Shown here: positions 23,534-27,137 of the stretch, piece by piece
Numbering within the stretch: the stretch's first letter is position 1
Layout of the letters: each line of letters starts with the position of its first letter
Assembly (NCBI GenBank): GCA_048882505.1
Contig: JBHLRO010000025.1
Location: 1-32,000 of the forward strand
From: Candidatus Thorarchaeota archaeon
GTDB lineage: Archaea; Asgardarchaeota; Heimdallarchaeia; Hodarchaeales; Hodarchaeaceae
Direction of reading: 5' to 3'
Length of the DNA stretch: 32,000 nt
Position numbers and translations under genes: made by a program
Notes under the pieces: model-generated
Database searches by the model: none
What the model was told of the DNA's origin: nothing
The model's input: the letters and a program-made list of their open reading frames with translations, nothing else

Positions 23534-24580
23534 TCATTTTTGGCATAGCACAATTGTTCGAACTCCTTCACCTCTTCTCATGACATCAAACGCTTCATTG
23601 ATTTCCGAAAGAGGGTACTTTCCAGTAACAAGTGGTTTAACCACAATTCTTTTATTTTGAACCAATTTAATAATGCGAGGATAGTCAACCGTGCGACATC
23701 CCAATGATCCCATGATTTCCATTTCACGAAACATGACTCTTCCTATATCAAAGCCATCCCATCTTTTATGTGAATACCCTACTGCAACCAATCGTCCTCC
23801 AGTCCTTAAGCTGTTGAAGGCCTGTTTCATGGTCACAGGGTTGCCAATGCACTCAAAAGCAACATCTGCACCTCCACCAGTAATCTTGCGAATTGCTCCA
23901 ACGATTGCACGGTCATCCAGATCGGCCGCTGATAAAATCTCAACTGCCCCAAGTTGTTTTGCGATTTCCAGTTTTTTTGGAATGATGTCCACTGCAATTG
24001 CCAATCCGCCAGCCACCTTAATGTTTTGAACCGTGTTTAGGCCTATTCCCCCACATCCGATGACAACAGCCCAGTCTCCTGGGCGGATCTGTCCACGATT
24101 CTTTACCGCATGATATGGAGTGGAAACAGCATCTGATATGATGCAACCCTCTTCTAATGGGATTTCGCCAGGTAAGGCGAAAATATCTTTGGCTGGGACC
24201 ATAATCTTTTCAGCAAATCCCCCATCCACATTGGAACCAAAAAACGTTTGATTCGTACAAATGTTCTCACGACCAGTCCTACAGTAAAAGCAATTCCCAC
24301 ACGAAATAACCGCAGGAACAAGCACGTGATCTCCTTGTTTAAAAGCGGTGACATCTTCGCTAGTTTCACGAACAATTCCTGACATTTCATGTCCCAAAAC
24401 CAACGGAGGGGATTTACCTGTCGGAACGCCATGATCTAGAAATCCAATATCAGTGTGACAAACCCCACAAGCCGTTATGTCAATGATTGCTTTTCCTGAA
24501 GAGTCACCGAGGTCCGGCGATGGATAGCTTCCATTCAATTTCAAAGGAGCCTTTACCTGTTCAAATATAGCTGCACGCAT
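23534..24580 (-). CDS. had: Zn-dependent dehydrogenase, 6-hydroxycyclohex-1-ene-1-carbonyl-CoA dehydrogenase-like (track start 24601)
   Basis: MDR motifs CGVCHTD, LGHE, CGNCFYC...C, GCGGIG. The GVPTGKSPPLVLGHE, PAVISCG and GSLGC...YP segments match remembered Had/BamQ-type sequences. Confidence 0.72.
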   Translation of the reverse strand: MRAAIFEQVKAPLKLNGSYPSPDLGDSSGKAIIDITACGVCHTDIGFLDHGVPTGKSPPLVLGHEMSGIVRETSEDVTAFKQGDHVLVPAVISCGNCFYCRTGRENICTNQTFFGSNVDGGFAEKIMVPAKDIFALPGEIPLEEGCIISDAVSTPYHAVKNRGQIRPGDWAVVIGCGGIGLNTVQNIKVAGGLAIAVDIIPKKLEIAKQLGAVEILSAADLDDRAIVGAIRKITGGGADVAFECIGNPVTMKQAFNSLRTGGRLVAVGYSHKRWDGFDIGRVMFREMEIMGSLGCRTVDYPRIIKLVQNKRIVVKPLVTGKYPLSEINEAFDVMRRGEGVRTIVLCQK

Positions 24581-24702
24581 CGGAACCACTTGTTGAAACA
24601 AGAAAATCCTGCTGATTTTTAATTGTTCCTGCTAATCTGGTTACATAATAAGTACAGGATTTTACTGAGATGGTTTACTCCCGTTTACTCTTCATGCGGC
24701 GT

Positions 24703-25374
24703 TTAGAGAAAGACCCCAATTTCGGATAACGATTTTTTCTCTATATTTGGAACCATCGCATCTTCATGGGGATATCCTACTGGCATAAGGACATATGGTT
24801 TTTCATTGGGAGGTCGATTGAGCAGTGTTTTTAGAACTTTTATGGGTGCCGGAGTATGAGTGACCGTGACCAGGCCTACATTATGGATCGCCATAATAAG
24901 CATCCCTATAGCAATTCCGACGCTTTCCTTGACATAGTAATGCGGGAGTTTTTGCATATTTTCACCAAATGCATAATCTTGGCGAAAAACTACTATTAGG
25001 TAAGGAGCCTCTGTTAAATAAGGTTTTTCCCAATTAGTGGCTAGAGGGGCTAGGGCTTCTCGTTGTGCATCCGAAATACGGGACTCGTAGAATTCCTTTT
25101 CTACTGCTTCTACCGCTACTCGAATTCGGGATTTTATTGAAAGATCGTTAACTACGACGAAGGTCCATGGCTGTTTATTGGCCCCCGAGGGAGCAGTACC
25201 CGCGGTCTTGACAATAGTTTCGATTATTTTTCGGGGTACTGGCTTGGTTGAAAATTTCCTAACAGTTCTCCGCGTTCGAGCCCATTCGTAGAATTCTGTG
25301 GAGCGAAAATCCATTTCATCGGAAGAATAAGTTTTGGGTCTGTATGGGACGAATTCTTTGCTCATTGTAACCAA
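24703..25374 (-). CDS. Iodotyrosine deiodinase-like flavoprotein (nitroreductase superfamily)
   Basis: RRTVRKF, TAPSGANKQPW, lid E-K-E-F-Y (Glu/Tyr pair), NWEKPYL (Lys), ESVGIA, THTP, RP.NE....PVGYP. Confidence 0.85.
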   Translation of the reverse strand: MVTMSKEFVPYRPKTYSSDEMDFRSTEFYEWARTRRTVRKFSTKPVPRKIIETIVKTAGTAPSGANKQPWTFVVVNDLSIKSRIRVAVEAVEKEFYESRISDAQREALAPLATNWEKPYLTEAPYLIVVFRQDYAFGENMQKLPHYYVKESVGIAIGMLIMAIHNVGLVTVTHTPAPIKVLKTLLNRPPNEKPYVLMPVGYPHEDAMVPNIEKKSLSEIGVFL

Positions 25375-25600
25375 CTACTTCGTGGTGCCCTTTGGCCAAG
25401 AAAATGGTTTTTGGACACCGCTGATAATACCGATAGTACACACAACTGATAATATCTTTATAATCCTTGAGATGCTCGCAGCAATGAAATAAACTTTTTA
25501 GATCAATGGAATACACGTATACGGGACCTTATCATTCATTAATTTCCAAAGCACATTTCAATTAACATTAAATATTACTACCTCAAAATGGCAATTACAT

Positions 25601-26332
25601 ATGTTGTTGGACACGCTGAGCTTCAGAATCGTAAAAGGGGTCGTTTGGACCAAATTTGATGAAGAAATGGGCCCTGTTCCTGTGGCCTGGGTACCTGATA
25701 CCCTTTCTGAAGAAATTTTGTTTAGCGTCTCTCTCCGTGGAATGTCTGTCTTCTCAAGTCGTCCTTCCAACATATCGTATGCAAAAATGATTGCTACACT
25801 TCCTTTTCCAGAATATGAGTTCTTTTCTATCTCTACAGTCCTTTATGAAGTCTCAGAGTCTCTCAGGGGCGGATTTGATATAAATCTGGTGACGGTTTTA
25901 ATCCCCCAACTGATAGTGGAAAATGCATGGCTGGATATACGTCAAATTCAAGGGATTTTTAGGAAGTATTTTGCTCCCTGGGATGGCAGACCAGTTAACG
26001 ATAAAGAAAAAATCATCACAGGGGTTGCTTTGGCCATTGATGACATTTTGTGTCGTAAATTCGAGATGATCGAAGAGGGAGAAAAGGTTAGAGATCAGCT
26101 AAACAATTATCTTGAGTCCTACCTTGTAACCTCCCGTGAAGAAAACGATCAACAGCTTATCAAGACACGAGTAAAAACATTGATTCAATCGTTGGACCGA
26201 GTACTAATAGCGGGGGATCATGAACGAATTCAAGAGGCCCTAGACCAACTGAACTATATCTTGAATGAGGGATTTGAGGATGAACTAATCATTGCTTACC
26301 AGGGTGCCTTTAGCCACTTTTTACAAATATAA
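25601..26332 (+). CDS. uDENN/longin-like domain protein with helical C-terminus (Asgard type)
   Basis: First strand VVWTKFDEEMGP (FD..xGP motif), LPFPE, LRGG followed by a hydrophobic strand, then a predicted helical region. Confidence 0.65.
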   Translation: MLLDTLSFRIVKGVVWTKFDEEMGPVPVAWVPDTLSEEILFSVSLRGMSVFSSRPSNISYAKMIATLPFPEYEFFSISTVLYEVSESLRGGFDINLVTVLIPQLIVENAWLDIRQIQGIFRKYFAPWDGRPVNDKEKIITGVALAIDDILCRKFEMIEEGEKVRDQLNNYLESYLVTSREENDQQLIKTRVKTLIQSLDRVLIAGDHERIQEALDQLNYILNEGFEDELIIAYQGAFSHFLQI

Positions 26333-26366: not shown

Positions 26367-27137
26367 TTAACGATTCTGCCAAACTGGAGATCTTTTTTCA
26401 ACAAAGGCCTGTAACCCCTCATTAGCATCCTTGGTTTCCATTAGCTCATGCAGGTATAAGTGTTCGATCCGACTCAGAATGTGCATGAATTCAACATGAG
26501 TTCCTATTTGGAGCGCTTTCTTCGCATATCGTAAAACGACCGCACTTAAGGACCTAAATCTCTGTAAATAGTTTTCAAAATCCTGATCGAAGGTGGTAGA
26601 GGGAAATACGTGATTTATCAATCCATATTTTAGCGCTTCTTGCGCATTCATTGATTCACCATGCATCACAAGTTCGTAGGCCATTTTCAGTGGTACCAGG
26701 TGCGGTAATAGAACCGTTGCCAGTGGGGGAAAGACACCCACTTTGATTTCTGGCTGTCCGAACTTGGCATTTTCAGAAGCAATCACAAAATCACAAAATA
26801 AGGCAACCTCACACCCCCCTCCCAGAGCTGCCCCCTTAACACTAGCTATCGTGGGACAGGGCAAAGAATAAAATTGTCTGAAGATTTTGTGGAATTCTTC
26901 GAGCATGGTCTTGGCTGTATCTCCCATATGCTCTCCTACATCTACTCCTGCGGAGAATGTCCGCCCTGTGTGTCCAACGACCAGGGCCTTCAACGAATTG
27001 TCCTTGGAAAATTCCTCAATCGCCCGATTGATCTCAACCATCATCGCAATGTTAAGAATGTTAAGTTTTCCACTGTTTAATATGATTTTGCCAACGTTAT
27101 CATTTTTAATTACCTGAATCTGTTCGTAGTTCATCAC
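26367..27137 (-). CDS. dch: Cyclohexa-1,5-dienecarbonyl-CoA hydratase-like enoyl-CoA hydratase
   Basis: LNILNIAMM, FSAGVDVGEH, EFHKIFR, ALGGGCE, FGQPEIKVGVFPP, IEHLYLHELMETKDANEGL..F.EKR.P.W match remembered Dch/BamR sequences. SD GAAGGTGA upstream. Confidence 0.8.
   Translation of the reverse strand: MMNYEQIQVIKNDNVGKIILNSGKLNILNIAMMVEINRAIEEFSKDNSLKALVVGHTGRTFSAGVDVGEHMGDTAKTMLEEFHKIFRQFYSLPCPTIASVKGAALGGGCEVALFCDFVIASENAKFGQPEIKVGVFPPLATVLLPHLVPLKMAYELVMHGESMNAQEALKYGLINHVFPSTTFDQDFENYLQRFRSLSAVVLRYAKKALQIGTHVEFMHILSRIEHLYLHELMETKDANEGLQAFVEKRSPVWQNR

Follow-up and report, generated by a model that had tools for sequence, protein, structure and literature searches.

An IYD-type flavoprotein, probably a free-standing halotyrosine dehalogenase, and its lineage-specific position beside a Had-like operon in a Heimdallarchaeota genome

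Introduction

The stretch of DNA considered here (the window; 32,000 nucleotides from the beginning of contig JBHLRO010000025.1, assembly GCA_048882505.1, referred to below as contig C25) belongs to a 4.3-Mb Heimdallarchaeota genome that is 94.5% complete, and it carries a gene for an iodotyrosine deiodinase (IYD) homologue directly upstream of a gene resembling had and close to a gene resembling dch. The question raised by such a locus is whether the neighbourhood marks a shared pathway, as was proposed in a sequence-only reading of the window, in which halotyrosine from scavenged peptides would be dehalogenated and then passed on to ring reduction, or whether the IYD gene has come to stand there without any metabolic connection. 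Archaeal IYD homologues are already on record (PMC8668982, PMC11126969), and no paper mentioning IYD in Asgard archaea was found in a literature search.

Identity and active site of the flavoprotein

The minus-strand reading frame 24703-25374 is open and counts 223 amino acids from the TTG at 25374; translation probably begins at the ATG at 25365, which would give a protein of 220 residues with the N-terminus MSKEF, since this is also the start of the identical database protein (P0002) and of every close relative. The residue numbers used below follow the 223-residue numbering. The product matches the Pfam Nitroreductase family PF00881 with 85.7 bits, and in a sequence search of solved structures the six best matches were all IYDs, including those of Haliscomenobacter hydrossis (HhIYD, 5KO7; E 1.5e-68, gapless over 214 residues), mouse and human (E about 1e-56) and Thermotoga neapolitana (TnIYD; E 6e-31), so that the gene call of the sequence-only reading holds on all three grounds of open frame, family profile and solved relatives. 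The nearest named relative (90% identity) is encoded by a Candidatus Heimdallarchaeota MAG, the sister of the window genome (locus L038).

The AlphaFold2 model, built on 60 homologues (pLDDT 93.4, pTM 0.89), has together with the PF00881 match the FMN-binding fold of nitroreductases, and its top 24 PDB matches were all IYDs, with TM up to 0.96; on HhIYD with bound I-Tyr (5KO8) it superposes with TM 0.96 and rmsd 0.9 A. No NCBIfam equivalog profile exceeded its cut-off for this protein, and the identities BluB, FbiB and NfsB were rejected by scores far under the cut-offs (BluB 66 against 150 bits).

In the characterised enzymes the lid Glu and Lys are universally conserved and the Tyr highly conserved, this triad binds the halotyrosine zwitterion, a Thr is placed near the flavin N5, and the backbone amide of an Ala contacts the substrate phenolate (PMC8668982). 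The corresponding positions were mapped from the gapless 5KO7 alignment, in which residue n of the window protein is HhIYD chain position n-1, and onto the human enzyme as n+65, an offset derived in the present analysis. Thus E92, Y96 and K117 are equivalent to E91, Y95 and K116 of HhIYD and to human E157, Y161 and K182, with the Glu-x3-Tyr pair followed by the Lys 21 residues on; T174, within the THTP motif (residues 172-175), corresponds to T173 of HhIYD and to human T239; and A65, within PSGAN, is the phenolate-binding Ala of the mesophile IYDs. All five residues are invariant in the 263 distinct IYD homologues over which conservation was counted, and the lid triad and the THTP Thr that had been noticed from the letters alone are borne out by the alignment to HhIYD. 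The human pocket residues D172, T178 and Y212 fall on positions 107, 113 and 147 (equivalences via PMC8668982 and the derived offset), where T113 and Y147 are kept and the D172 equivalent is A107.

HhIYD (5KO7, 5KO8, 5KRD) is the closest of the known systems, with about 50% identity, a length of about 220 residues, a soluble form without membrane anchor, an E1 lid and E2 extension, and the triad, THTP Thr, phenolate Ala and RRTVR FMN motif in common. The window enzyme differs from it by its archaeal (Heimdallarchaeota) host, by being known from sequence and model, and by Q for W103, V for E90, A for D106 and V for the Phe after THTP. The mammalian IYDs (human 4TTC, mouse 3GFD) share 45-47% identity over the catalytic domain and agree in active-site residues and fold (TM 0.95); unlike them, the window protein has neither the N-terminal membrane anchor nor the thyroid iodide-salvage context, and their pocket Asp is replaced by Ala. 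TnIYD (6PZ0, 6Q1L) and the thermophile-type archaeal homologues, such as that of P. furiosus, are prokaryotic enzymes with the same triad, and TnIYD shows prokaryotic IYDs to be strict halotyrosine dehalogenases (PMC8668982). TnIYD is of a minimal type that lacks both the N-terminal extension and E2 and whose E1 is shorter by one residue, whereas the window IYD is of the full mesophile type, with both the N-terminal extension and the E2 segment, and has only 34% identity to TnIYD (TM 0.76).

Sequence, key residues and modelled fold together give good support to the assignment of the gene to the IYD-type halotyrosine dehalogenases, and the product is probably a genuine and active member of this known subgroup.

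Table 1. Features of the window at and around the IYD gene (positions of the window; a dot in the strand column marks a region between divergent genes)
Feature	Positions	Strand	Remarks
IYD-subgroup flavoprotein gene	24703..25365	-	Likely ATG at 25365, 220 aa
Had-like Zn-dependent dehydrogenase	23534..24580	-	TIGR03201 223 bits, cut-off 338.65
Dch-like crotonase	26367..27137	-	TIGR03189 186 bits (cut-off 292.5), the top score of the genome
Longin/NPR2/folliculin-like Asgard protein, 243 aa	25601..26332	+	Divergent from IYD
E1 lid segment, residues 88-121	25012..25113	-	E92, Y96, K117; lineage-specific V91, Q104, A107, T121
Codon of T174 (THTP)	24853..24855	-	From the 5KO7 alignment; Thr near flavin N5
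Spacer from IYD stop to Had-like start, 122 nt	24581..24702	-	93% identical in the sister
AATTAAAAAT box	24615..24624	-	-44..-35 relative to the Had-like start codon; candidate TATA element of archaeal type for the Had-like operon
Divergent intergenic region, 235 nt	25366..25600	.	Presumed IYD promoter

Genes around the IYD gene

Read along the minus strand, the order of genes in the window is Dch-like, a convergent, oppositely oriented 243-residue gene, IYD, Had-like, thiolase and DUF35-SDR. The neighbours had been named had and dch outright, and this naming stands in so far as both are the best candidates in the genome, the next matches reaching only 97 bits for TIGR03201 and 80 bits for TIGR03189; both score below the curated cut-offs, and neither is a certified equivalog. 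The Had-like gene, which is by far the top match in the genome and whose orthologues in relatives are clustered with Oah, is therefore the best Had candidate, and it probably works like Had, with family membership unproven. The location of IYD between the two genes was likewise described correctly, with the qualification that the plus-strand gene at 25601-26332 separates IYD from the Dch-like gene.

In two relatives of the same genus (L202 = G181:C171; L205 = G115:C52) the genes form one cluster in the order Dch-like, Had-like, thiolase, DUF35-SDR, ACAD, Oah and thiolase. In the window genome the cluster is fragmented, with Oah (570 bits, cut-off 464) and one adjoining thiolase on contig C4 (C4:15276-17605), and a BcrC-like gene scoring 246 bits against a cut-off of 421 lies at C25:40093-41319, 13 kb from IYD. 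Opp genes adjoin the Dch-like gene, and a CstA gene is also nearby. Given the Oah-containing clusters of the relatives and the Oah and BcrC-like genes of the genome itself, a benzoyl-CoA-type lower pathway is a reasonable reading of the neighbours of IYD. Benzoyl-CoA lower-pathway clusters have been predicted in Asgard archaea earlier, for example in Hermodarchaeota (PMC8163825). The window flanks resemble such clusters in holding the best Dch and Had candidates of the genome, with orthologues clustered with Oah in relatives, and differ from them in that IYD occurs in none of the clusters examined in other genomes and the window cluster is fragmented.

Further along contig C25, an aldehyde:ferredoxin oxidoreductase gene and an Eco57I/MmeI-type DNA methylase gene (G000:C25:34804-39034; L200 2804-7034) are flanked by the genes for the Opp binding protein and the BcrC-like protein, and a BcrB-like gene is cut by the end of the contig. 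The Dch-like protein has 55-61% identity to its same-genus orthologues, while the Had-like, thiolase and DUF35-SDR proteins have 68-87%; the Dch-like gene may have evolved faster since its separation from the Had-like operon.

The 243-residue protein had no match in Pfam, and its structural neighbours in the Atlas were Arf/Ras-linked Asgard proteins, folliculin, C9orf72 and NPR2, with TM 0.5-0.6. It looks like an Asgard gene of eukaryote-signature type dropped into a metabolic cluster, and longin-type regulators have no bearing on aromatic metabolism. Elsewhere this gene adjoins IYD only in the sister genome.

Linkage and distribution of IYD among genomes

Flanks of up to 10 kb on either side of IYD were compared for 10 further Asgard genomes and for 80 genome-collection and 80 metagenome loci. 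The proteins P0005-P0010, which at 66-75% identity are the closest outgroup IYDs, were looked for in the species genomes of the order and class and were not found there. Had-like, Dch-like or thiolase neighbours were present at none of the 10 other Asgard loci and at one of the 160 further loci, namely that of the sister; among about 170 IYD loci, L038 alone has a Had-like, thiolase, DUF35-SDR or 243-residue gene nearby, and no conserved linkage of IYD with Had or Dch was found. The adjacency at L038 is one shared event with the window and gives no independent support. In all ten other Asgard genomes that hold both IYD and a Had-like gene the two are unlinked, being on different contigs in nine (G062, G115, G133, G136, G202, G211, G015, G145 and G178) and 209 kb apart in the one-contig genome G206. 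The adjacency had been read as the sign of a pathway, to be given up, among other grounds, if it proved peculiar to this one genome with the genes under separate regulation; its restriction to the window genome and the 90%-identical sister comes close to that, and the expectation of IYD-had/dch linkage in other genomes was not borne out.

The distributions of the two genes tell the same, since IYD shows no consistent co-occurrence with the pathway genes and is uncorrelated with the Had-like gene across the phylum. IYD was found in 11 of the 201 sampled Asgard genomes, and within the class in 22 of 83 genomes from only two families (f1, 12/21; f3, 9/12). Families without IYD (0/65) hold the Had-like gene in 28 of 65 genomes (f13, 14/40; f16, 10/19; f22, 4/6), with an orthologue identity of 72-75% in f13, about 50% in f16 and 36-37% in f22, and three genomes (G054, G172 and G205) have IYD without a Had-like gene. 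The neighbours of IYD in other Asgard genomes are mutually unrelated (endonuclease V, CbiM, radical SAM, UbiE methyltransferase, WD40, CCG/Fe-S, MtmB and LRR), and across the approximately 170 loci there was no universal neighbour, only lineage-specific synteny within Bacteroidota families.

Two other pairings were observed in the same loci. In many Bacteroidota loci, mostly of Saprospiraceae and Cytophagales, IYD is preceded on its own strand by a short-chain dehydrogenase gene whose end lies 30-100 nt away (L051, L079, L092, L093, L100, L112, L113, L117, L156 and L194), a recurrent pairing that differs from the proposed one with Had. On two Hodarchaeota-type contigs an MtmB-like gene of the monomethylamine methyltransferase family follows IYD on the same strand (L121 10704-12089, 59 nt downstream of IYD; L044 8303-9688).

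Origin of the adjacency

In nine of ten relatives, whose Had-like orthologues have 72-82% identity, the Dch-like gene stands directly upstream of the Had-like gene with a spacer of 40-82 nt, and it follows that IYD and the longin-like gene are the inserted part. By parsimony the simplest history would be a single lineage-specific insertion of about 1.8 kb, comprising the 243-residue gene and IYD, that split the Dch-like/Had-like pair. The sister contig ends inside the longin-like gene, before the position of the Dch-like gene, and a Dch-like gene was not found in the sister genome.

In a quick maximum-likelihood tree the window IYD nests in a clade of same-genus IYDs with 98% support, the GC content is unremarkable (0.39-0.44), and no long flanking repeats or tRNA genes were found. 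Horizontal transfer or a mobile element was rejected on these grounds, and the placement of IYD looks like an internal rearrangement and not a transfer.

Spacers and candidate regulatory elements

The Had-like start is most likely the ATG at 24580, which yields the 122-nt spacer and confirms the co-orientation and distance given in the sequence-only reading. No T-run terminator was found in this spacer directly after the IYD stop, and read-through co-transcription of the two genes is possible. The spacer also contains the AATTAAAAAT box, and the same or a near-identical box stands 34 nt from the Had-like ATG in the window genome and in L038, L203, L204 and L206, in the last three of which it sits between the Dch-like and Had-like genes. 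Its distance to the Had-like start is thus constant across same-genus genomes with or without IYD upstream, for which reason the Had-like gene has probably kept its own promoter; the box agrees with an archaeal TATA element followed by a short leader and is a candidate for that of the Had-like/thiolase/DUF35-SDR operon.

On the other side of IYD, the divergent region contains two 15-nt direct repeats (25415-25429 and 25440-25454), 25 nt apart and 50-90 nt upstream of the IYD start, that read TATTATCAG..GTGT on the minus strand and are identical in the sister genome; they may be a regulator binding site. Intergenic DNA of the window and the sister shows 92-93% identity, as does the coding DNA, and this comparison is uninformative for promoter elements.

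Lid changes, branch length and selection

The window IYD and its sister copy share several changes in or near the lid. The Trp found in 255 of the 263 homologues, and also in mammals, is replaced by Gln (W104Q), which occurs in only eight of them, namely the window gene, the sister copy and P0005-P0010; E91V replaces a Glu kept in 249/263 (V in 7/263), and F180V a Phe kept in 258/263 (V in 2/263). The change D107A, at the position of the pocket-lining human D172, is not rare, Ala being present in 52/263. The proteins with Gln for the lid Trp (P0002 and P0004-P0010) form a subclade, while the Trp is otherwise conserved from mammals to bacteria.

In the quick maximum-likelihood tree the window and sister IYDs are set on a long stem branch of 0.55 changes per site, and they have only 57-61% identity to other same-genus IYDs, compared with about 80% for the Had-like protein. 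Between the window and sister species, for which dS is about 0.45, the dN/dS of IYD is 0.095, within the range of the neighbouring genes (0.03-0.11), so that the variant enzyme is being maintained; a decaying gene was ruled out on this value.

The lid-site changes could mean an altered substrate range, with a small chance, and as the zwitterion triad has been preserved, an aromatic amino acid is still to be expected as the substrate. On these grounds it may be supposed that the subclade of the window, the sister and P0005-P0010 uses a different substituted aromatic amino acid from that of the classical IYDs, such as another halogenated, or a nitro- or hydroxy-substituted, one. The rarity of Q104, V91 and V180, the additional substitutions in the lid and after THTP in the four closest members of the subclade, and the long stem branch followed by a low dN/dS all speak for such a change, as does A107 in place of the Asp, the more so as an aromatic residue at the equivalent site of TnIYD changes ligand selectivity (PMC8668982). 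It is nevertheless held to be unlikely, though with some small chance: no change has touched the triad, the N5 Thr, the phenolate Ala, T113 or Y147, A107 is also carried by the 52/263 ordinary homologues, the model superposes on the closed-lid enzyme as closely as stated above, and a role of the lid Trp was not found documented in the literature covered.

Function of the enzyme and alternative explanations

The reading that is considered probable is that of a soluble, FMN-dependent and free-standing halotyrosine dehalogenase, whose adjacency to the Had-like gene is a lineage-specific rearrangement and reflects no shared pathway. The enzyme would most likely release halide from 3-iodo-, 3-bromo- or 3-chloro-L-tyrosine and leave L-tyrosine. 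If it works like the solved IYDs, E92, Y96 and K117 would clamp the amino-acid zwitterion of the substrate while the lid closes over the flavin, and T174 would then favour one-electron flavin chemistry. All IYDs tested, including the enzyme of a bacterial thermophile, are strict for halotyrosines (PMC8668982, PMC11126969), and TnIYD acts on 2-iodophenol with less than 0.01% of its efficiency on iodotyrosine (PMC8668982); from this specificity it follows that the product is expected to be tyrosine. In Asgard archaea IYD behaves as a single gene that stands alone without fixed partners, and which in the window lineage would have been brought by one rearrangement to the head of the Had-like/thiolase/DUF35-SDR string, with the Had-like operon most likely still firing from its own conserved promoter box. 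A plausible role would be the salvage or detoxification of halogenated tyrosine from detrital marine protein.

The pathway proposed at the outset would make IYD a recruited first gene of the Had-like operon that feeds peptide-derived halotyrosine into Dch/Had/Oah dearomatisation. Its attraction lies in the co-oriented position of IYD 122 nt upstream of the Had-like gene with no obvious terminator, in neighbours that are probably benzoyl-CoA lower-pathway genes, in the Oah over its curated cut-off and the BcrC-like gene of the genome, in the relatives' clusters (L202, L205) that hold the Dch-like gene together with Oah and thiolase genes, in the Opp and CstA genes nearby, and in the persistence of the arrangement in a sister species at the dS given above. 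This persistence, however, is that of a single evolutionary event, unlinked in ten other genomes, and an adjacency that arose from one lineage-specific rearrangement is no mark of a shared pathway; the insertion that produced it brought in an unrelated longin-like gene and cut the Dch-like gene off from the Had-like gene, which retains its own promoter-like box, and the distributions of IYD and the Had-like gene across the phylum are uncorrelated. Opp does not adjoin the Dch-like/Had-like pair in relatives. Many steps lie between tyrosine and benzoyl-CoA, and the known anaerobic route from the one to the other requires 4-hydroxybenzoyl-CoA reductase. For the alpha subunit of this enzyme (TIGR03194) no match at E <= 0.001 was found in the 94.5%-complete MAG, absence from a MAG being no proof, and the known route was thus not recovered in the genome. 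The recruitment of IYD to such a pathway is therefore judged improbable, and of the earlier interpretation the IYD-type identity of the enzyme stands, while the route of peptide uptake, dehalogenation and dearomatisation, assembled from adjacencies that are not conserved (the one of IYD a one-off, that of Opp unconserved in relatives), is not supported.

A more radical doubt concerns the activity itself: the protein might be no dehalogenase in vivo, being instead a generic nitroreductase or flavin reductase, with IYD-like residues that have some other part in binding amino acids. IYDs without lid closure do carry out hydride-type nitroreduction (PMC8668982), and neither a halotyrosine source nor a physiological reductant is known for prokaryotes. 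Such an explanation is nonetheless very improbable, given that every assayed homologue bearing the triad dehalogenates halotyrosines (PMC8668982, PMC11126969), that the diagnostic residues are all invariant and that the gene is under purifying selection.

Implications

In a bolder extension of both the lid changes and the gene order, the remodelled enzyme (Trp to Gln, Glu to Val, Asp to Ala and Phe to Val) would have been moved to the head of a ring-degradation operon, and there it would make halogenated aromatic amino acids, or products of their breakdown, ready for anaerobic ring reduction. The chance of this is regarded as slim; if it were true, the lid-remodelled operon IYD would supply a first physiological function for an IYD of prokaryotes. 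Had an operon partner been conserved, it would have offered a direct handle on the role of IYD in prokaryotes; this locus gives none because the adjacency is a one-off rearrangement.

For the favoured reading of a free-standing enzyme, the comparison shows IYD to be patchy in Asgard archaea, restricted to two families and always without fixed neighbours, and the relatives show how the genes of the benzoyl-CoA lower-pathway cluster were ancestrally arranged in the genus. A small subclade with a Trp-to-Gln change in the lid exists, with possibly altered specificity. On the basis of sequence and model, a predicted halotyrosine dehalogenase of the IYD subgroup is now documented in Heimdallarchaeota.
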